Shown here in pieces: positions 1-9,822 of a stretch of 64,000 nt of DNA. The position numbers and the translations under genes were made by a program. Below the pieces are notes generated by a model. It did no database searches. It saw only the letters and a list, made by a program, of their open reading frames with translations, and was not told where the DNA came from. Source of the DNA: an uncultured delta proteobacterium (GTDB taxonomy: Bacteria > Desulfobacterota > Binatia > UBA9968). Position 1 is the first letter of the stretch. Each line of letters starts with the position of its first letter. The stretch is from positions 1-64,000 of the forward strand of contig CAWDPO010000002.1 in the NCBI GenBank assembly GCA_963804165.1, read 5' to 3'.

Positions 1-357
1 CGGACCACGTGCGGGACCTCCTCCAGCAACGTGGCGACAGCCGGACGGGCCCTGGTTGGATGGGGAGAATCGGTAGAACAGGAGTGGGCAGCACGAATGG
101 CACTCGTAGTGCTCCACAAGACTGAGATGCTAAACGAACCTACGTTTCGGAGGCAGGAGGCGAACTGGTTGGCCATTTGTGACAACACGCCACGACCCTA
201 TCTCGACCTTCAATCTGCGCCTAGGTATCTTTGCGAGCGCTTGGTAGGCATCCGACGTCACCCTGTCGAGTTTGATCACGTCTTCATTGAACTCCCAAAC
301 AATCTTGTGATGGTTGCAGGCGCCCAAGCATATGCGGTACCACTTCATCGGCCTTAA
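1..357 (+). CDS. hypothetical protein, C-terminal part (probable integron cassette gene)
   Basis: Frame is open from base 1 to TAA at 355-357; no recognisable domain; it is the first of several same-strand small ORFs. Confidence 0.5.
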   Translation, partial: RTTCGTSSSNVATAGRALVGWGESVEQEWAARMALVVLHKTEMLNEPTFRRQEANWLAICDNTPRPYLDLQSAPRYLCERLVGIRRHPVEFDHVFIELPNNLVMVAGAQAYAVPLHRP

Positions 358-400
358 ACCTCTTCCGGCGGACCCGCACATGCTAAGATTAGGTTGATCG

Positions 401-800
401 ATGTGGAATCCCTTCAAAAAGACTGAGGAAGCACAACACCCTACGGCTGCTAGACTGAACGAGATCCTCGAGGGCATATGCTGAGGTTCTCAGCAACGAG
501 TCCAATCCTTGGCTTATGGATGAGTCGTGCCTGCCAGCAACCCAAAAAGAATTAAAGCTGGCGTTATTAGCAGTGCTTGCGAGTTCTACTACCGAAGAAG
601 AACGCGAGCGCTGGCGGTGCTGCTATCTGTACCTGGCGAGCTTCTTGCCGGGGGTTGGGCCAAAGGGGATCCAAGACTTTGATGCTCAGGATCACGACCG
701 GCTGCAGAGCCAGCTGGGGTGGACGGAAAAATTCGCGGAGGAATCGGATCGCCTGAAGGCAGAGCTCAGTCAAGATAGAAGCCAAGCTGCGCACCGATAA
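401..800 (+). CDS. hypothetical protein (one apparent frameshift near 470)
   Basis: ATG at 401 (MWNPFKKTEEAQHPTAARLNEIL) joins by one indel to ...AYAEVLSNESNPWLMDESCLPATQKELK... (ORF 516-800); followed by an attC-like site. Confidence 0.5.
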
Positions 801-837
801 ATTCATCTCAGTTCTTCAGTGGCTTCGTGATTTAAAA

Positions 838-887
838 CCCTAACCATTGGGTGAGATCGACAGAGCGGTTCACCCAAAACGTTAATA
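838..887 (+). repeat. attC-like integron recombination site (short)
   Basis: CCCTAAC-cattg-GGTGA(G)ATCG-acagag-CGGTTCACC-caaaac-GTTAATA: TAAC/GTTA core ends, 5/6-nt spacers, paired L boxes with one extrahelical base; RBS and ATG follow. Confidence 0.55.
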
Positions 888-915
888 TCGTGGAAATCTC
901 AGTGAGGACCAAAGA

Positions 916-1083
916 ATGCTGAAAACCTATGGCGGCTGTTGTCATTGCGGCGCGGTTCGTTTTGAGGCAGATATCGATCTGAGTGCTGCGACACGCTGTG
1001 ATAGTGATAGAGAAACGGTTTGTCCAGGTAATCAACAATGGCTTCTATTCGGATCAGTAAAGCTCGCCGGCACAAAATTCTGA
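916..1083 (+). pseudogene. GFA (glutathione-dependent formaldehyde-activating)/CENP-V family remnant, N-terminus only
   Basis: GAGGA RBS then MLKTYGGCCHCGAVRFEADIDLSAATRC, matching the GxCHCGAVRFE start of GFA proteins; similarity ends before the CNCSIC motif. Confidence 0.6.
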
Positions 1084-1111
1084 GGGAGCACCAATGAGAT
1101 AATTTTCTACT

Positions 1112-1536
1112 ATGGATCCGTCCAAAGAAACGGACAACAAGTTACGTTGGCAAGCCTGGGGAAGGCGGCGTTCTCTTCAAACTATACGTTCCCAAATGGC
1201 GTGTTCCGAAACCGTGGCCAGTTAGAATCGTTGTCAGGATCGACGACGATCCAAATTCGTTTCTCGCTGGCGCCTCCCTCCCGCGGGCCCGAGTCGGTGG
1301 AGACTGGGAATCTCGATGAACCCGTCGTTACCCTAGTCGCAAAGCATACAAAGCATACCACGACCGTTCGCTATACCCCGATTGATGATCCCGCAAACTG
1401 GGAGTTGGGCGAACCTTACATTCCATTCACCATTTTGAGGACACCGGTGCCGGAGCGGTTACGAATTGATGTTCGATTCATTGGGACCCAACCGCGGGTA
1501 CTTGGACTGAATAGGCTTAGTAGCAGGGCAGTTTAA
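1112..1536 (+). CDS. hypothetical protein (frameshifted; probable cassette gene)
   Basis: MDPSKETDNKLRWQAW / LFKLYVPKWRVPKPWPVRIVV / TVRYTPIDDPANWELGEPYIPF in successive frames; the stop codon lies inside the GTTTAAC inverse core of the next attC. Confidence 0.5.
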
Positions 1537-1614
1537 CCCGCCGCTGGACCCGATGGTCAGGTCAAGGGATTGATGATTCTACTCCGAATACGGCTCACCG
1601 GCATAACGTTAGGT
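1531..1614 (+). repeat. attC-like integron recombination site
   Basis: GTTTAAC (RYYYAAC) ... GTTAGGT (GTTRRRY), 84 bp; GCCGCTGGACCCG pairs imperfectly with CGGCTCACCGGC; immediately followed by GGAG RBS and ATG at 1631. Confidence 0.6.
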
Positions 1615-1630
1615 TCCGCAGGAGTGACTT

Positions 1631-2078
1631 ATGTTCTGGCGAATGGAAAGCCAAGTCCTGAAGATAAAAAGCCTGTACGAGACCAACACAAACTGTTGGA
1701 GGCTACGCCTGCCGCTGGCGACAAGCGAGCCGAGATTGTTCTTTCGTTGATTGCAGTTGCCGACGAGGCACTGAAGATGCGCGAGTCGCTTGCGAAAATA
1801 TTGGAAATCTACGAGAACCGATTCAACGAAATCCTAGAGGATGCGTCGCTGTACTTTCCCGTCGATCTTGCGGTGAAACCAGGGAACTGCACGAGTATTG
1901 AGAAGATTTCAAGGATGTTGAGGCGTCGTTTCACGTACCTGCAGCTTCGGCAAAGATCGCTCCTCACTTTCCAAAAACAACGGTAGAACGATGGAACGCA
2001 ACTCCCCCGAGACCGAACGAACCCGGCGAGACCGCATTTTATCATACCAAACTTTCGCGAGCACAAGATGTCCCATGA
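1631..2078 (+). CDS. hypothetical alpha-helical protein (frameshifted; 3' end uncertain, 1986 or 2078)
   Basis: GGAG RBS + ATG at 1631 (MFWRMESQVLKIKSLYETNT) continues by an indel into ORF 1570-1986 (KLLEATPAAGDKRAEIVLSLIAVADEALK...); an alternative frame runs to a TGA overlapping the ATG at 2075. Confidence 0.45.
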
Positions 2079-2538
2079 TCTCAGACATTGATGTTTATTC
2101 GCTATCACTCAGGAGGCTTTCGCCGAGATGAACCGGCTATTTAAGGCTCTTCTCGAACTCCAAAGCCCCACGGCGAGCCTGGGCACATCATTTCCTTTGA
2201 CCCTGATAGACGGTCTTTTAAACAAGCTCTCATCGTCATTGCTTTTGCCGCAAGTACTAGGGGCGCTCATATATAGTCTGGCCTTCAAGCGATACGGTCA
2301 CGAAGAAGCGTTAAAGATCGACCGACTATTATGAGCAACTAGGCTCGACTGGGAATCAACAGACAAGACTTCTCGATAGCGCTAAAGAGTTTCGCAACGC
2401 GCGCAAAGAATTGATACACGAAAAGGCAATTGAGGTGAGCGAGATGGGCGGCACAAAAATAGCCTTCGCGCAGACAGTGGCAACTGAGCTGTCAAGTTGA
2501 TCCACCAAGTTCGCCAGCAGCTCGAAAATCGTCCGTAA
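2075..2538 (+). CDS. HEPN-like protein (several indels)
   Basis: Stitched translation MISDIDVY.AITQEAFAEMNRLF..SRTPKPHGEPGHIISFDPDRRSFKQALIVIAFAA...ALIYSLAFKRYGHEEALKIDRL...LLDSAKEFRNARKELIHEK; Rx4H motif (RKELIH) at 2402-2419. Confidence 0.5.
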
Positions 2539-2610
2539 CTATGCTTTTAAGCCAAAATCACCTCTGGTTTGGCATAATTTTCGAAATTCGCCGAAATGAG
2601 TCTGCCGTCA

Positions 2611-2630
2611 AGGAGGCGTTAACGCCTCCT
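2611..2630. repeat. perfect 20-bp palindrome AGGAGGCGTTAACGCCTCCT
   Basis: Directly visible; identical to its own reverse complement. Confidence 0.8.
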
Positions 2631-2830
2631 CAAACCGCTCTATCAGAGCGGATCGATCGTTCCAGCCTACAATAGCGTCACCCACACTGCCAGAATGAAC
2701 CCGATCTCCCAAACCTCGACACAAGCATTGACCTCTTTTCGTCACTACCGGGTTCACTGTGGTTTATATGACCCAGCCCGTGTTGTCCGTGATCGAAAAG
2801 GAATTGGCCGTCGATGCGCGCCCCGCTTAG

Positions 2831-3244
2831 TTGTTCATGTTGATGGTTATTTTCGGTATCGCGCTGGCCAACCTGCGTTCGGCATGCTGGGTCGTCGATA
2901 AGTACGGCGGCACCGACCCCTTACTCACCATCACGATTTGCTTAAAGCGACCGGGGGATGTGCCGTTCGGCACCAAGCTAACGGAACCTAAAAGCAGTGC
3001 AACAAAAATGGCTCCCTGGTTGCCTCACCGGGATCCTCTCGGTCGATATTTTCAAGGAACCGTTTCACATCGAGGTTCTGCAGGGAGAGAAAAAGACAGC
3101 TTCCAAACCTCAGGCGCCTTCCTTTTTAGTGAGATGGGTCACGTACCCCTCTGTGCCCGAACCTTTGGCTGGAACAACTCACGTTTCGAGATCGTCGATA
3201 TCGATGGCAAGCAAATGAACAAGGTGCTCGTGTCGGGGCGATGA
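2831..3244 (+). pseudogene. HlyC/CorC (hemolysin, CBS/transporter-associated domain) family remnant
   Basis: Fragments VVDKYGG..LLT..DLLKA..GDVP, GILSVDIFKEPFHIEVLQGE and FQTSGAFLFSEMGHVP...FGWNNSRFEIVDIDGKQMNKVLV resemble the CBS end and CorC_HlyC domain; most of the N-terminal part is missing. Confidence 0.65.
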
Positions 3245-3421
3245 AGAGCGTGCAAGGAAATATTCCAAAAAACATTTCATTTCTTGAGAATTAAACCGGC
3301 AAGCTTACAACAAGGCAATTTGCCTATCGTGACATTGCCCATGCACGTCGGGTTAACCGTATTAATCGTCGTTTTTTGGGTCATAGCAATAACCGCTCCA
3401 TGAAATTTTCGTTCACAAGGC

Positions 3422-3450
3422 TTGACATTCGATGGTATCGGGCTGATATT
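3422..3450 (+). promoter_or_regulatory. putative sigma70 promoter giving a near-leaderless transcript
   Basis: TTGACA-17 nt-GATATT; ATG at 3460 is only 9 nt after the -10 box and has no SD. Confidence 0.5.
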
Positions 3451-3459
3451 CTCCAGCCA

Positions 3460-3765
3460 ATGTTCAAAAAACCATCTGGCCGTAGTGCTCGTATTCTGCT
3501 GGGTCGTTCTCTCTCGCTTAGATCTACTAGAAGATCTAAAGTTGGAATCGGAACACAGCGGTTACAGTCAGAGGGCAAGTCTCTCTCGCCAAATTGGATC
3601 CAGCATGCCGGCCTGGCAAATAACATCCTGGAATCGGCAATTGATGCTTATGCATTTTATACTCCGTTTCTTCGACTGAATCTCTCTCAGTCCTCTATTC
3701 GCCCCGTCTCGTCATCGCATAAGGTCTTAGAACTCCACAAGTTGCATCGGGTCTTTCTCATTTAA
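3460..3765 (+). CDS. small protein with hydrophobic N-terminus and C-terminal LHKLHRVFLI; candidate regulatory upstream ORF
   Basis: ATG 3460 is in frame with the stop at 3765. Two compensating indels (A6 run at ~3466 and ~3567) give MFKNHLAVVLVFCWVVLSRLDLLEDLKLESEHSGY.QSEGKSLSPNWIQHAGLANNILESA...KVLELHKLHRVFLI. Confidence 0.6.
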   Translation: MFKKPSGRSARILLGRSLSLRSTRRSKVGIGTQRLQSEGKSLSPNWIQHAGLANNILESAIDAYAFYTPFLRLNLSQSSIRPVSSSHKVLELHKLHRVFLI

Positions 3766-3938
3766 ACCCATTTTTCGGTTTCCTTCGCATCTTAATCAAT
3801 TATCGGGGGCTGAATGAACTCTATCCAGAACCACCCATAGATTTTTTGATGCGATATTTAATTCCCTTTTTGACTTCACTCTAAAATGACGTCGTGATCG
3901 TTAGCTCAGAATCACCACGTTGAGAGAAGGATATCCGG

Positions 3939-5486
3939 ATGGAAACATCTCTCTTCACCGCAGCCGCTCAGGCTTTGTGAACTTGCTGCGACTCAAAGTT
4001 TCTTCGCCATGCTCATTGGGGTAAGCATCGGCACGTTCACCGCCGTGGCGCCGCAGGGTTCGGGCATGCCCCTGGTCTATGCGATCACGCTTCCGATAGT
4101 TATCAAATGGGAACCCCTCACCGGCATTGCGCTATTAATCGGAGCCAGCTCGGTCAGCGCGATTTGCGCCGCGTATTTGCCAATCCTTTTCGGTATCCCA
4201 GGCGGTTCCAGCTCGCAGGCCACCGTGCTCGATGGCTACCCGATGGGAAAGAAAGGCGAAGGACGGCGTGCCCTAGGCGCGTCTTTTATGGCTGGGGCTT
4301 AGGATGTCTGATCGGCACCTTCACCCTGGCCGCGGCAATTCCCGCTGCGCGACCGATCATTTATCTCATGGGCTCGCCGGAGCTTTTCGTCGTTATGCTC
4401 TGGGGCTTGAGCATGGTCGCTGTGCTCGCGGGACGGCGTCCTATTAAAGGATTGATCGCAGCTGCATTCGGTCTCCTGCTCGCAACTGTCGGCCAGCAGG
4501 CGCAGAGCGGCGTCATGCGCTACGTCTTCGACGTACCCTATTTGCTCGATGGCATTTCGATAAGCATCATCGCGCTCGCGCTGTTCGGCGTTCCCTCAGC
4601 CTTGGACTTAGCGCTCACCAAGCTCGGCGTTGAGCAGCAACCGGTGCCGCTCAAGGGAAGTTAATTGGATGGCGCGAGGACGCCTTACGTGAGTGGTGGC
4701 TTGTCGTGCGCTGCAGTTTCGTCGGCGTATGGGTGGGATCGTACCGGGACTCGGCTCCCAAGTCGTCGACTGGCTGGCTTACGGCCATGCGGCCCAGAGT
4801 TGCAAAGGCGGACGACAGACGTTTGGCAAAGGCGATGTGCGAGGCGTTATTGCACCGGAAAGCGCCAACGATGCCAAAGACGGCGGCGACCTGGTTACGA
4901 CCTTGATTCTCGGTTTCCTCAGGGTGTTGTGACCGCGCTCTTTATCGTCGCGTTGCTCGCCTGGGGCTATCTTCCCGGGCCTGAACTTGTGACGAAAAAT
5001 CCAGAGATTATTTACAGCATCGTTTGGTTGCAAGGAATATCTGGCATCATCGGTACATTGATCGGCTTCGGCTTGGCCGCGCAGCTCGCCAAGCTGGCTG
5101 AGGTTCGCTACTCCTTCATGGTTCCCATCATGTTTATTTTTATCCTGATGGGAGCCTTTAGCGTCAATCGCGATCCGGCAGATCTAATCGTCGTTGTCGC
5201 TTTCGGCCTCCTGGGATATTTCATGCGTCGCTACGGGTATCCAAGGCCAGCAATGATTCTCGGTTTGGTTCTCGGCGATTTGATGGAAAAATATCTATAT
5301 CGCTCCGTGGCAAGCTATGGCTTCACCTGGCTCGGACGCCCGGCGGTCATCACGCTGCTGTTCTTGGCAACGGCGTCATTGTTTTTCACCGTGCGCGGCA
5401 GAATGAAAGCAAATACGAAAGCGAGTGATGAAGAATCTGCGGTCTCCTTTACCGGCGCCATGGCGAGGTCTGAAGATGAAACTTGA
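3939..5486 (+). CDS. tctA: tripartite tricarboxylate transporter large permease TctA (about 4 frameshifts)
   Basis: Motifs GIPGGSSSQATVLDGYPMGKKGEGRRALGAS, GSPELF, APESANDAKDGG and GYPRPAMILGLVLG across ORFs 4009-4302, 4107-4664, 4693-4932 and 4665-5486. Confidence 0.85.
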
Positions 5487-5580
5487 CTTGACTTTTTTTG
5501 GTTTTTTTGTCGGCGCCACAATTCTCGGATGGCATTGGCCGAATACTGAGAAAATCACGCCCGTCTACGCGCGGCTACTA
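5476..5580 (+). pseudogene. probable truncated TctB small permease N-terminus
   Basis: ATG overlapping the tctA stop gives MKLDLTFFGFFVGATILGWHWPNTEKITP (one TM helix then WP...P); similarity then lost. Confidence 0.35.
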
Positions 5581-5628
5581 CAACTTAGATGGCGTTGTCA
5601 GTGGTATCCAACGACTTATTCTGCATTC

Positions 5629-5694
5629 GTCGAAAAAATGTTTCGACTTCTCACGGCAAACACAGTTGACGCTCATGCCAATATTAAAATATTG
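5629..5694 (+). promoter_or_regulatory. inverted repeats and promoter-like sequence upstream of the second tctA
   Basis: GTCGAAA-n5-TTTCGAC (5629-5647), TTGACG (5666-5671) and CAATATT-aa-AATATTG (5679-5694). Confidence 0.35.
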
Positions 5695-5732
5695 CGCATG
5701 CTCCAAGGAATTCGCAGTCAAAGGAGATCCAT

Positions 5733-7232
5733 ATGCTTGAGGCTTTTATCTCAGGATTTTGGCAAGTACTCGCATGGCCAGCCTTTGGCTACATGCTTCT
5801 CGGTATCGCTATCGGCTTTTGGGTAGGTCTTCTTCCCGGCATCGGCGGCCTCTCGACATTGGCGCTGATGTTGCCATTTTCCTACAACATTAAAGAACCG
5901 ATTTCGGCGTTTGCTTTTCTTCTCGGCATGCTCGCCGTTACGGGCACCACTGGCGATTTAACCTCCGTTCTTTTTGGGATCCCCGGGGAGGGATCTTCGG
6001 CCGCCTTGATACTCGACGGCTATCCCATGTCGAAAAACGGCGAGGCTGGGCGTGCCTTGGGCGCGGCGATCATGAGCTCGGTGGTAGGCGCTATAATCGG
6101 CGCGCTGTCTCTCGCACTCTCGATTCCGATCATGCGCCCGCTCGTGCTGCTCTTCGGCTCCCCGGAGCTTTTTATCATCGCGATCATGGGCATAACCTTT
6201 ATCGGCACCCTGGCTGGAACATCTTTGATCAAGGGGCTTTTGGCCGGCGGTATTGGCTTGATGCTGGCGGCCATCGGCGTCGATCCGCAGACCGGCTCCC
6301 TCCGATACACCTTTGGCTCTCTGTATCTGTGGGACCGCCTGGACATTATTCCGGTCGTCGTCGGCATGTTTGCGATTCCCGAAATCGTTGATTTGGCTGT
6401 GCGCGGCACCAGCATCGCGAGCGGAAGCCCAGGGAAACTCACCGGCGTGATGGAAGGCGTCAAAGACACCTTTCGCCACTTCTGGCTGGTGGTCCGCTGT
6501 AGCTTGATCGGTGTTTACTTCGGCGTCCTTCCCGTTCTGGGCGCCAACGTCGCCCAATGGATTTCCTACGCGCACGCGGTGGCTGGTTTAAAAGACAAAT
6601 CGCGCGCCGGCAAAGGTGCAGTCGAAGGCCTGCTCGGTCCAGGCACCGCGAATAATTCAACCCGTGGCGGAGACTTGATTCCGACCCTTGCCTTCGGTAT
6701 TCCCGGCAGCGGCTCTATGGCGCTGCTGCTCGGCGCCATGTTGATCGTCGGTCTCAATCCCGGTCCCGAGATGCTCAAGTCGCGCCTTGACGTGACTTTC
6801 TCGATGGTCTGGGTATTGATTATCTCCAACATCATCGTGGCTGGGTTGTGTTTCTTGATCTTGAATCATCTGGCGGCTTTGACGTTCATTCGCGGCACCT
6901 TGTTGATTCCGTTCTTGATGTTTCTGGTTTTCATCGGCTCGTTCACCGCGAACAACGATCTCAACGACGTCATCACCACGCTGATCTTCGGCTTTATCGG
7001 TTTTTGCATGGTCAAGTTCGGCTGGCCGCGGCCGCCGTTGATACTGGGGCTCACCCTCGGCAAGATCGCGGAAAATTATCTGTGGATTTCTACTGCCGCC
7101 TACGGCGCCAAATGGCTTATGTTCCCGACGGTCATTGGGCTCATTGCGCTCACCATCTTCACCGTGGCCTATCCGACGATCAAAGAACGCATGGGCAAAG
7201 CCAAATACGAACGCCCGGAAGACGCGGTTTAA
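5733..7232 (+). CDS. tctA: tripartite tricarboxylate transporter large permease TctA
   Basis: 499 aa, AAGGAG RBS; GLLPGIGG, GIPGEGSSAALILDGYPM, IPTLAFGIPGSGSMALLLGAM, GWPRPPLILGL. Confidence 0.92.
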   Translation: MLEAFISGFWQVLAWPAFGYMLLGIAIGFWVGLLPGIGGLSTLALMLPFSYNIKEPISAFAFLLGMLAVTGTTGDLTSVLFGIPGEGSSAALILDGYPMSKNGEAGRALGAAIMSSVVGAIIGALSLALSIPIMRPLVLLFGSPELFIIAIMGITFIGTLAGTSLIKGLLAGGIGLMLAAIGVDPQTGSLRYTFGSLYLWDRLDIIPVVVGMFAIPEIVDLAVRGTSIASGSPGKLTGVMEGVKDTFRHFWLVVRCSLIGVYFGVLPVLGANVAQWISYAHAVAGLKDKSRAGKGAVEGLLGPGTANNSTRGGDLIPTLAFGIPGSGSMALLLGAMLIVGLNPGPEMLKSRLDVTFSMVWVLIISNIIVAGLCFLILNHLAALTFIRGTLLIPFLMFLVFIGSFTANNDLNDVITTLIFGFIGFCMVKFGWPRPPLILGLTLGKIAENYLWISTAAYGAKWLMFPTVIGLIALTIFTVAYPTIKERMGKAKYERPEDAV

Positions 7233-7546
7233 TTACCCTTACCACCGAGACGTGCGAGGCCGGCAGAATTACCACGCTGTCCGTATAATCTCCTCTGCGA
7301 GTACATTCTCGCTCCCCTTCGGACTTCACTGGTGTACTATAACAAGTGCCAAGCAAGGAAAGTTTTCCACGCTTAAGACCGCCCCGTCAATCTACATAAC
7401 TAAGCCATGGCTGTGATTATGTTGGACGAAAAAACAAAGAACGATAGAAGTGTAATAATCTATCAAAAGACTTCGGCCAGCTAGCACAAGCGAAAAAAGC
7501 TGTCTTTAACGGCAGACTACTCCCGTCAATTCTTGCATAAGCCAAG

Positions 7547-9524
7547 ATGAAGTCGCTTCCGTGTAATCTTGATATTCACCGGCTACCTCATGGGGTCCGG
7601 TTGATGTCAGGCGCAGGCCTGGCTTCGATCTTAGACATTGCAATTTTTTACGGGTTATCTGCCAATGGCTTTACGACCGTCACGACCAATCTGCTTAGCT
7701 TTACTTTGGGAACGCTTTTAGGCTACTCGCTGATCGCGCGAGGAATATTCGCGCACACCTCTGCGGTTGCGGTCGATGACCTGCATGTCCGAGTTCTTTA
7801 TGGCCGCTTCGCCATTATTTTTTTACTGGCGCTTTTTTTTCGCGGCATCCTCTTTCCCCGTTTACTGGAAAGCTCATATTGGCCGTCTCAACCGGCCATT
7901 CTCGTGGCCGCTTTCGCGGCGCATCTCGTCCAGTTCTTCGGCGTGATCACAGTCGTGTTTGCGCAGGGTTCGTGGATATCTCCATCGCCGAATCATTGGC
8001 GACGACTCGCGATCGTAGTTGTCGGGTATACCGTTGCGTTCAGGCTAGCTGCAATGGGTCCGGTGAATTTGATCCCCGAGGAAGCCTACTATTGGAACTA
8101 CGCGCAGAACTTGGACTGGAGTTACCTCGATCACCCACCGATGGTTGCCTGGCTCATCTGGATCTCGACGGCGTTGTTTGGGAGATCAGAATTTGCCGTT
8201 CGTCTGCCAGCGTTAATCTCCTGGACCTTTGCGGCCGGATTCATTTTTCGCTTGACCGCCAACGTCTTCGACCGGAACGCCGCGTTCCGTTGTCTTTTGC
8301 TGATGGCCGTCTTGCCGTTGTATTTTGGTTTTGGCTTTTTCATGACCCCCGATGCGCCGCTTTTCGCCGCGTGGGCGGGCTGCCTCTTTTATCTGTACCG
8401 TGCCTTGATCGCCCAAAGCCGTGGCTCCTGGTTTGGGGTGGCTTTATGCATGGGAGTGGGGTTACTGTCGAAATATACGATCTTGTTGCTGGCGTTCACC
8501 ACCGCGGGTTTTTTGCTCGTTGACCGACGGTCTAGGCAGTGGTGGTTTCGCGTTGAACCTTATCTCGCGGCGCTTCTTTCCGGAGCCATTTTTCTGCCCG
8601 TACTGATCTGGAACGCCGAGTGGGATGGGCCTCGTTTGTCTTTCAAGGCCCTCGTCGCTGGTCGGACAATTTTGATTTTTCACTGACTTTCCTGATTGGC
8701 TCCATTCTGCTGGTGCTCACTCCCCTGGGTGTGGCGGCAGTTGCCCAAACTCTTCTGCCACCGGCGACGGACAACACCGTGCCGGGTCAAGAGACGCCGG
8801 ACTATCGACGTCAATGGCTGTTTGGTTCGATGTTCACGCTCGTGCCACTATCCGTATTTTTGCTTTTTAGCTTCCTCCACCAACCTAAACTCAACTGGAC
8901 GGCCCCCCTCTGGCTAGCGATTATTCCGTGGGTAGCGCAAACCATGGGCCGGAGGTTCAACCCACCGGGAAAATATTTCTGCTCGTGCGGCGGCTATGGG
9001 TGCCGAATCTGACGGCGCTCCTTCTCTTATTGAGCGCCGGGTTCTACTACATCAATTTGGGTCTACCGTGGGCGGGAGCGATGTCAGAGGGCCGGCTCCT
9101 GGGACCGTGGAAAGTGGTGGGGATGAAAATCGATGCGCTCCAACGAAAGATCGAGGTTGAAACCGGCGCCAAAGCTCTAGTGGTTGGAATGGACAGGTAT
9201 ATGATCACCAGCGAGCTGGCTTTCTACGATCAACTGGACGGCAACAGATTCAAGAACGGTGGTGGAACTCACTTTTTCGGTGATCGAGGTCTCATGTGGG
9301 GGTATTGGTTTCCTAGCTCCGCTCAGGTCAGCAGAACCATTATCCTGGTGGATTTGCGCGCCGAGAGATTAACGAGGCGTCCCTACCATAAGTTTTTTGA
9401 GCGTATGACGGACACCTTCACGGAAACTCTAGAGATCGACGGGCGAAATGTCGGACAACTTTACTGGCGCATCGGCTATGGCTACCGAGGCCCGCCCTCT
9501 GCGGCCAGTAGTCCAACCAACTGA
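7547..9524 (+). CDS. GtrA-like domain fused to a GT39/ArnT-type membrane glycosyltransferase (frameshifts ~8620, ~8960)
   Basis: N-terminal 4-TM GtrA-like segment, then PEEAYYWNYAQNLDWSYLDHPPMVAWLI, MTPDAP, GLLSKYT and KLNWTAPLWL. Confidence 0.8.
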
Positions 9525-9715
9525 AATCTGCCGGTGCAGTCACCGCCGATGACGAAGCCCGCATGCTCATGTTCGTCGGCGCCGCCGCATTTCGAGCAGG
9601 GATCGCCACACCACCGCGCCCTTTCAGTCTCGAAGGTGACGAAATATTTGTACTGGTAGAGTCCTTCGGCGCCGGTTTGGTCGATTTGACGCGTGTAGAG
9701 GCACCCCCTACGGTG
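9525..9715 (-). pseudogene. possible remnant of a glycoside hydrolase (GH13-type) N-terminal domain
   Basis: Minus-strand frame reads EGLYQYKYFVTFETERARWCGDPCSKCGGADEHEHAGFVIGG, resembling the YxYKY...DP early domain; no start and no catalytic domain. Confidence 0.3.
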
Positions 9716-9822
9716 AGAAACTTTTGTCGTCGCCGGGGCCGTCGCGGACTGCTAGCGAGTTCCGCCCGCCAATCTCGGGAAATACATACTCAGACATGAT
9801 TGCCTGAGTATAGCCGCCACGA

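Follow-up and report, generated by a model that had tools for sequence, protein, structure and literature searches.

A predicted leaderless gene of about 100 codons, probably the first cistron of a translation-coupled switch, in an uncultured Binatia lineage

The window analysed here consists of the first 64 kb (64,000 nt) of contig CAWDPO010000002.1 (C2) from the uncultured delta proteobacterium assembly GCA_963804165.1 (Desulfobacterota, Binatia, UBA9968), and our subject is a small open reading frame (ORF1) located upstream of tctA, the gene for the large membrane subunit of a tripartite tricarboxylate transporter (TTT). The gene, its promoter geometry, the conservation of its C-terminal tail, a pyrimidine-rich tract behind its stop codon, the predicted pairing of this tract with the Shine-Dalgarno sequence of the next gene and a small partner ORF (ORF2) can all be read from the sequences of the locus and its relatives. 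Because of this pairing with the next ribosome-binding site, the cassette is probably a translation-coupled switch, of a kind not described before for this uncultured soil lineage. In the reading that we favour, if only on balance, a conserved cassette starts with ORF1 as its first cistron; a ribosome at the end of ORF1 would unmask the next ribosome-binding site, the tail would make this ribosome pause, and the export signal may act as a sensor. In the window, ORF1 probably gates translation of tctA by means of the following elements, numbered from the first base of the window:

3422-3450, + strand: sigma-70-type promoter, with TTGACA at 3422-3427, a 17-nt spacer and GATATT at 3445-3450; 10 of 12 consensus matches.
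3460-3765, + strand: ORF1, 101 codons in its intact form, with the stop codon TAA at 3763-3765; based on the intact copy in contig C9 and on homologues.
3463-3540 (approximate, owing to an indel at 3476), + strand: putative N-terminal export or anchor segment, consisting of KK, the hydrophobic run LAVVLVFCWVVLSGL and then the acidic DLLEDL.
3733-3762, + strand: the last ten codons, LHKLHRVFLI, followed by the stop; residues conserved, codons varying.
3766-3795, + strand: pyrimidine-rich tract (ACCCATTTTTCGGTTTCCTTCGCATC...), the predicted 5' arm of a long-range helix and anti-Shine-Dalgarno sequence.
3796-3921, + strand: structured spacer with internal hairpins, from predicted folds of the C9 and window versions.
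3922-3941, + strand: translation initiation region of tctA, with the Shine-Dalgarno sequence GAGAGAAGGA at 3922-3931, a 7-nt spacer and ATG at 3939-3941; predicted 3' arm of the helix.

In the window, ORF1 is broken over two frames, 3422-3679 (LAVVLVFCWVVLS..DLLEDL) and 3376-3765 (LANNILESA...LHKLHRVFLI), and a first-pass annotation had therefore postulated two compensating indels and a product of about 101 aa. An intact version is present at the end of contig C9 (C9:147858-157681), of which bases 1-9812 of the window are a 97.3% copy with 205 substitutions and 84 indel columns. The C9 copy (L004:1716-2021) encodes 101 aa (MFKKPLAVVLVFCWVVLSGLDLLEDL...LANNILESA...KVLELHKLHRVFLI); compared with it, the window has a C added at 3476 and one G fewer in the run 3573-3575. 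Public metagenome contigs of relatives (four other runs, region 3300-4100) match C9 at 3572/3573, 3770 and 3970; a G is inserted at 3572 in two runs, and one contig reads ...CCAT directly followed by TGG across 3476, without the extra C. Also tctA (3939-5486) and a PMT_2 gene (7547-9524) are fragmented in the window and whole in C9. Since C9 and the relatives' contigs agree and both neighbouring genes are whole in C9, the frameshifts are most likely errors due to poor polishing of the contig end and at worst private to the window copy, which bears out the two postulated indels. Likewise, the duplication of window 1-9812 and C9 suggests not real pseudogenes but a second strain, or an overlap that was poorly polished and never merged. 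Among the sequencing runs listed there was no RNA run, and the DNA shares were small (at most 0.20). It is hardly credible that nothing at the locus is functional and that it represents a decayed pseudogene or an assembly artefact: this would fit the two frameshifts, the broken state of tctA and PMT_2 and the number of differences to C9, but ORF1 is intact in C9, the relatives' contigs side with C9 at four indel sites, and the ORF1 family has been kept across at least 29 genomes.

A word-indexed search returned 24 full-length homologues of ORF1 (100% query coverage, 43-85% identity, mostly exactly 101 aa, without Pfam domain), and an exhaustive phmmer search gave 63 matches, 61 of them about 100 aa long. 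The median length over 40 copies was 101 aa (range 87-106). Four of the 41 copies considered below stem from unpublished genomes, namely L043 and L068 (G079), L049 (G005) and L058 (G076). Of the 123 genomes of the order, 29 carry the family. All of these belong to a single GTDB family, with up to five copies per genome, some of them in tandem; the NCBI titles of matching contigs from metagenome-assembled genomes name Candidatus Binatia, 'Deltaproteobacteria', Thermodesulfobacteriota and others. Conserved in the alignments are an N-terminal M-x-R/K-K-x-L-A...W..LSG.DLLEDL, a central LANNIVESA block and the C-terminal LHKLHRVFLI, separated by freely variable regions; D21 is invariant, and W14, E24 and D25 are conserved to at least 90%. 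The N-terminus thus combines a conserved K/R-rich start, a hydrophobic run of 12-16 residues and acidic residues, as judged from the alignments and not from a dedicated signal-peptide predictor. AlphaFold2, run with the alignment, predicted a helix over residues 3-37, with a predicted local distance difference test score (pLDDT) of 89-98 over residues 1-30 and of 47-64 from residue 31 onward, and a predicted template modelling score (pTM) of 0.32. No family was found in a Pfam scan of 62 members, DUF2946 and SecM included, and NCBIfam was blank, too. In a protein atlas, ORF1 matched only unnamed clusters (Binatota, Acidobacteriota), apart from weak leads at 0.90-0.91 to SecM_small, DUF2946/DUF6769 (0.91, flagged as often due to chance) and CzcI, which are to be taken as leads only. 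Two further identities were considered and dropped: TctB, as ORF1 has one hydrophobic segment instead of four, and a fragment of a larger gene, as the homologues are full-length at about 100 aa. A truncated second ORF1 N-terminus (residues 1-29) was observed about 1.07 kb 3' of the full gene in L005:7376-7462 and also in L003:2913-2999; between the two lie two tandem paralogous ORFs of about 65-85 aa (MNVLIEMSLDHYDGLTEKC...).

The promoter directly abuts the gene. GATATT ends 9 nt before the ATG at 3460, and this gap contains no Shine-Dalgarno sequence, which is the layout by which leaderless genes are recognized (-10 end 5-10 nt before the start, no Shine-Dalgarno sequence). TTGACN occurs 32-42 nt 5' of the start codon in 37 of the 41 copies and the full pattern (-35, 16-18 nt, -10, 4-10 nt, start) in 30 of the 41, and from this promoter geometry the ORF1 mRNA is read as leaderless. 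In a scan of the genome of the window, 34% of 132 matches to the layout preceded an ORF of at least 80 aa, compared to 23% for a pseudo-start control. Given this weak genome-wide enrichment, the leaderless layout is a trait of the ORF1 family and not of the organism. The ORF1 promoter looks strong and constitutive.

At the other end of the gene, the residues of the tail are kept and the codons are free, with Leu at position -2 encoded by six different codons and Val at -4 by four, indicating selection on the peptide. Of 38 copies of the ORF1 family (group 1), 36 end in Ile, as do all 17 members of a remote second class described below (group 2). The stop codon itself varies (TGA in 17, TAG in 13 and TAA in 8 of the 38 group-1 copies), the tail always ends exactly at this codon, adjoining the pairing tract. 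The tail lacks Pro, and the ORF1 alignments contain no conserved Cys pair. Conservation at the peptide level, the end exactly at the stop, the retention in an otherwise dissimilar class and the constant total length of about 100 codons suggest that the tail may prolong the residence of the ribosome at the stop codon.

The sequence following the stop codon is also conserved in character. Its first 20 nt consist of 77% pyrimidines throughout the family, compared to 48% after 3734 long ORFs of the window's own genome, of which 0.6% reach the median of the ORF1 family; over 20-30 nt the share is 74-77%, and the pure pyrimidine tract is 25-30 nt long. The tract is a conserved functional element. 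Minimum-energy folds of 21 of 23 group-1 loci showed at least 5 of the 12 nt of the downstream Shine-Dalgarno window paired with the 34 nt that follow the stop (mean 8.6 nt). Of 460 shuffles of the tract that preserved its composition, 60% reached the same extent of pairing (mean 5.2 nt), as did 28% of 460 random 34-mers (mean 2.4 nt), so that composition accounts for much of the predicted pairing, but not for all of it. Duplexes of cognate tracts and sites had a mean energy of -16.3 kcal/mol versus -13.35 kcal/mol for permuted partners, and none of 20000 permutations reached the observed value; as the loci are related to each other, all of these pairing tests are approximate. The bases flanking the pairing core vary in a compensatory manner between loci (GGCUC/GAGCC, GUCUUC/GGAGAC, CAUC/GAUG). 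In the C9 copy of the locus, the tract is predicted to pair with 4 nt of the tctA Shine-Dalgarno window and with the start codon region (duplex -18.3 kcal/mol), and the spacer folds at -59.2 kcal/mol (z -4.1). Among loci without ORF2, the tract pairs with the Shine-Dalgarno window of tctA in L006 (8 nt) and L070 (9 nt) and with that of a CNNM gene in L046 (5 nt) and L066 (10 nt).

The start codon of tctA at 3939 follows the ORF1 stop by 173 nt, and this spacer contains no terminator-like site and no strong promoter-like site on the + strand. An Rfam scan of eight loci identified no known RNA family in the spacer, the sole match being to an unrelated small nucleolar RNA model (E 0.12). Directly 5' of the tctA Shine-Dalgarno sequence lies an inverted repeat of 10 base pairs (3889-3898/3911-3920, 12-nt loop). 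All 10 are formed in C9, whereas the window has 9 of them, and the repeat could serve as an operator or form a hairpin within the spacer fold. With respect to the structure of the locus, the first-pass annotation was accurate: the promoter 9 nt before an ATG lacking a Shine-Dalgarno sequence, the signal-like N-terminus, central block and conserved C-terminus, the pyrimidine-rich sequence after the ORF and the distance to tctA without an obvious terminator were all found again, in the window itself, in the alignments or family-wide.

In most loci, the next cistron is not a transporter gene. About 110-120 nt after the ORF1 stop, a strong Shine-Dalgarno sequence (GGAAAGGA or GAGGAGA) precedes an ORF of 32-35 codons, ORF2, which has the sequence MEDFP[IL]WLKLVVWLVVGGT..YA.GAA.YS (its start also being written MEDFP[IL]WLK...) and one hydrophobic helix. 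An ORF2 profile detected it downstream of 27 of the 41 ORF1 copies, in 25 cases within 260 nt, with a mean column identity of 59-63%. This conserved micro-ORF is covered by no family model scanned (no match in Pfam or NCBIfam; protein atlas score at most 0.84). In whole-genome profile searches, 57 of the 90 genomes from the GTDB family contained it; in an even sampling of the phylum (401 genomes), only the genome of the window (G000) was positive, 399 genomes of other families and one of the same family being negative. In two loci (L072:2627+ and L074:4001+), a conserved ORF of 103 aa (MQLRDHPLVSYRGR...) without family match is located 70-82 nt after ORF1 in place of the micro-ORF.

Among the loci with an ORF2 copy but without a match to the ORF1 profile, 18 were inspected, and in 17 of these another ORF of about 100 aa (98-107 aa) is situated 59-140 nt upstream of ORF2. 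In these group-2 ORFs the N-terminus is signal-like, the acidic block reads, for example, IDIDDDHRH or FDIDDEHRG, and the C-terminus is ...V[FLW][LR]I-stop. Only the N-terminal hydrophobic segment, the acidic block and the tail are shared with group 1; hhalign aligned the two groups end to end with a probability of 87% at 10% identity. Pairing between tract and Shine-Dalgarno sequence was predicted in 10 of the 17 loci. The position of the group-2 cassette is fixed within an operon, in the order phosphoenolpyruvate mutase/isocitrate lyase (PEP-mutase/ICL)-like gene, amidase, cassette, NMT1-type binding protein, HMGL/PYC_OADA carboxylase and DUF2459; the genome of the window has a copy on contig C34 at about 72009-72500 (L077), and the others are L078-L094. 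Judged from these dissimilar sequences, what is conserved is the architecture: a putative export signal, about 80 residues, the tail, the stop, a pairing tract and a Shine-Dalgarno sequence of ORF2 that is predicted to be masked.

A hydrophobic single-helix peptide of 32-35 aa with a masked Shine-Dalgarno sequence might also be the toxic part of a hok/mok-like or type I toxin-like module, in which ORF2 would damage the membrane and would be kept off by the masking, dependent on the upstream frame. The distribution of the copies would be in line with this, as they are patchy, multi-copy and sometimes in tandem and occur beside an integrase (L047), a restriction-modification gene (L075) or gene remnants (window). 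However, the group-2 cassettes hold a fixed place inside a conserved metabolic operon, the ORF1 promoter looks constitutive, and the sole promoter-like site on the minus strand of the window spacer, with 9 of 12 matches, is within chance expectation, although antisense RNA was not searched for. We therefore regard a toxin module as very unlikely.

The transporter genes of the window are arranged in tandem:

3939-5486, + strand: tctA, large TTT membrane subunit, in at least four pieces in the window and intact with 517 aa in C9 (L076:7959-9509).
5733-7232, + strand: second tctA paralogue, intact, 499 aa (PF01970, 1e-115).

The C9 tctA matches PF01970 over profile positions 2-423 (2.9e-104), and the window copy matches in four pieces; no tctC was seen near the two large subunits in the stretch examined. 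The first-pass annotation had proposed ORF1 as a uORF-like regulator with a conserved C-terminus, possibly belonging to a family that regulates TTT uptake, and had named homologues directly upstream of transporter operons, with conservation of the termini only, as a test of this. The first part of this has been strengthened by the conserved leaderless gene, its tail and a tract predicted to pair with the tctA site, and the regions between the conserved blocks are variable; conserved are the N-terminal hydrophobic segment, a central block and most of all the C-terminal decapeptide. The dedication to TTT systems could not be upheld: the next cistron is the micro-ORF in 27 of 41 copies, CNNM genes occur in tandem, convergent or divergent, and tctA follows on the same strand in only five loci, directly in the window/C9, L006 and L070 and after ORF2 in L007 and L067. 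In L067:4643-6652, the gene 3' of the ORF1-ORF2 cassette encodes a 670-aa TctA-TctB fusion (PF01970 and PF07331), and in L007 TctA and TctB follow each other in separate frames.

The corresponding mechanism, in which a C-terminal stall would block loading of Rho on the pyrimidine-rich RNA and thereby allow read-through into tctA, thus appears unlikely to us. The five loci with tctA on the same strand and a 173-nt spacer without terminator-like site or clear promoter argue for it. So does the excess of C over G from about -111 to +30 around the ORF1 stop (C 0.28-0.35, G 0.10-0.24), which is compatible with a rut-like site but proves nothing. On the other hand, tctA lies behind only 5 of the 41 copies, and in one locus (L056) tctA is divergent from ORF1; the genome of the window contains about 20 tctA loci, with ORF1 only at the window/C9 one; the pure pyrimidine tract is only 25-30 nt long, and it is more readily accounted for by pairing with the downstream Shine-Dalgarno sequence, as one arm of a helix.

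The commonest larger neighbour is a CNNM/CorC gene, which lies within 3.5 kb of 18 of the 41 ORF1 copies: 8 copies (7 loci) have it downstream on the same strand, 8 convergent, 1 divergent and 1 upstream on the same strand, and in two loci it follows ORF1 directly. The genome of the window has only two CNNM genes, one of which follows the ORF1 paralogue on contig C4. Further neighbours are ChrA/ChrB, a CDF exporter, MFS transporters, TonB/ExbD and PMT_2. No Sec or YidC family was found among about 330 neighbouring ORFs scanned, so that the adjacency to secA, secDF or yidC typical of monitoring substrates is not seen here. Gene remnants are present 5' of ORF1 in both the window (2695-3244) and the C9 copy; one is an MFS-like N-terminal fragment and the other, from the C-terminus of CorC_HlyC (PF03471, E 6e-4), has its match in the end of the CNNM gene beside the ORF1 paralogue on C4. 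Convergent with another ORF1 copy is an ORF of 1447 aa (L010:6870-11210, also L052:3-3443) that combines an AcrB-type RND pump (PF00873) with outer-membrane efflux repeats (PF02321).

From these elements, the favoured course of events can be outlined as follows. The near-consensus promoter abutting the ATG would give rise to a leaderless mRNA. Its first product would have an N-terminal signal for export or anchoring and would end in the invariant tail ...V-F-L-I-stop, the roughly 80 residues in between, in which one or two acidic motifs occur, being poorly conserved. The tract behind the stop would reach over a structured spacer, about 110-175 nt long, to pair with the Shine-Dalgarno sequence and start region of the next cistron, usually the putative single-pass membrane micro-ORF of 32-35 aa and in the window tctA. 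We infer that a ribosome on the ORF1 stop would cover about the first 10 nt of the tract, whereby the helix would open and the downstream site become exposed, and that translation of the next gene would depend on, and last no longer than, the presence of a ribosome at the end of ORF1. More speculatively, the conserved tail would most likely lengthen this occupancy by slowing termination from inside the exit tunnel; equally speculative is the nature of the cue, the export signal possibly making the pause sensitive to export or to extracytoplasmic conditions, as in SecM, MifM, VemP and CutF. As the window locus lacks the micro-ORF, the usual target of such a switch had escaped the first-pass annotation.

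Several observations weigh against this course of events. The predicted pairing is in part driven by composition, because 60% of the shuffled tracts still pair; it is absent or weak in 2 of 23 group-1 and 7 of 17 group-2 loci, and predicted folds of the ORF2-less loci L073, L074 and L061 show no pairing of the tract with the next site. The window copy of the spacer folds weakly (z -1.4). Judging from known footprint sizes, we estimate that only the outer half or so of the helix would be opened by a ribosome sitting at the stop. CNNM cannot be controlled in cis in the 8 convergent cases, and a larger neighbour is therefore not generally under such control. Most known arrest peptides have Pro-rich or RAPP-like features, of which the tail shows none. 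Finally, a stable protein function would be equally compatible with the conserved motifs DLLEDL and NNIVESA and with an ORF2 that is strongly conserved.

The last point leads to the main rival, a plain two-protein system. ORF1 would then be a stable exported or membrane-anchored protein that binds ORF2 and/or CNNM/TctA by a C-terminal amphipathic helix and its acidic motifs, and the masking would only couple the cistrons for stoichiometry, with neither pause nor sensing. The higher conservation of ORF2 (59-63%) and its wider distribution (57 of 90 family genomes, against 29 of 123 order genomes for ORF1) would be expected in such a system, as would internal ORF1 motifs that exceed the needs of an arrest peptide, a tail with the i, i+3, i+7 hydrophobic spacing of a docking helix, as read from its sequence, and a CNNM gene adjoining 18 of 41 copies in any orientation, including one of the only two in the window's own genome. 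It is less easily reconciled with the AlphaFold2 model, which shows no fold past the N-terminal helix, with freely varying regions between the motifs, in contrast to a length that remains close to 100 aa also in the remote class at 10% identity, with a tail that always ends exactly at the stop beside the pairing tract, and with the tctA-linked loci in which there is no ORF2 to bind. We consider a two-protein system possible, if rather doubtful. Similarly doubtful, and put forward as a tentative extension of the switch model, is a new lineage-restricted class of exported sensor nascent chains: the leaderless ORF of about 100 codons would carry a non-proline tail (...ΦxKΦxxVFLI-stop) that arrests termination, would be tuned by acidic/His periplasmic motifs (DLLEDL and NNIVESA, or DIDDDHRH in the remote class) to an extracytoplasmic cue, for instance the membrane potential or a divalent cation, and would switch on a 34-aa membrane micro-protein or a transporter (TctA, CNNM) as a portable module.

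No description of the ORF1-ORF2 cassette was found in the literature searched. To our knowledge, arrest or sensor leader peptides are few, and most of them have come to light in searches upstream of sec/yidC genes or in the DUF2946 family. Should the tail indeed pause termination, it would be a new arrest sequence, and the cassette would represent a portable translational switch before transporters (TctA, CNNM) in an uncultured soil lineage. In translational coupling by long-range RNA pairing, as between the coat and replicase genes of MS2, translation of the upstream gene opens a helix that masks the next ribosome-binding site. The ORF1 loci differ in that the masking arm lies just after the stop and not inside the upstream gene, and in the strictly conserved tail, which simple coupling would not need. 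In the tna operon leader, the ribosome stays at the stop codon of TnaC, a peptide of 24 aa without export signal, in dependence on free tryptophan and with involvement of Rho, and a long spacer precedes the regulated gene. In the model for ORF1, too, a ribosome at the leader stop would control what happens on the RNA immediately behind it, and the regulated gene follows after a long spacer; unlike TnaC, ORF1 has a putative export signal, and its evident target is a base-paired Shine-Dalgarno site. With SecM, MifM, VemP and the later Sec/YidC-linked arrest peptides, ORF1 shares the N-terminal topogenic signal and the conserved C-terminal segment, and MifM, at about 100 aa, is also of similar size.

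In SecM, according to the sections of PMC7897499 used here, a stem-loop that sequesters the downstream Shine-Dalgarno sequence is disrupted by the stalled ribosome; a comparable masking structure is predicted in the 21 group-1 and 10 group-2 loci given above. Monitoring substrates are described in the same sections as being encoded upstream of secA, secDF or yidC, with an N-terminal topogenic sequence and a C-terminal arrest that is released by the export machinery. The genes next to ORF1 are instead ORF2, TctA, CNNM, NMT1-type binding proteins and others, and LHKLHRVFLI, a conserved tail that may arrest translation, resembles none of the arrest motifs quoted there (PMC7897499). Stalling with the stop codon in the A site is reported, in excerpts of PMC10987492, for the classes uA_NSP-stop, uDF_NAP-stop and uDF_DGMK-stop. 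A further parallel is CutF of the Rhodobacter capsulatus cutFOG operon (DUF2946), a small exported protein encoded directly upstream of its target, and the unmasking logic of cutF-cutO, as outlined in portions of PMC9973294, is similar to that proposed here. CutF-like genes often adjoin metal-homeostasis genes (PMC9973294; bioRxiv 10.1101/2025.02.05.636593, both in part), and ORF1 adjoins CNNM/CorC, CDF and ChrA/ChrB. ORF1 differs from CutF in having no DUF2946 match (0 of 62 members at E up to 1), no CxxxC motif and no proline-rich tail, in its predicted leaderless mRNA and in its usual target, which is a micro-ORF of 32-35 aa and not an enzyme. The cassette thus sets itself apart from these systems by an unrelated, proline-free tail that ends at the stop, by a predicted leaderless mRNA, by a length of about 100 codons that is kept even at 10% identity and by an unannotated 34-aa membrane micro-protein as its usual target.

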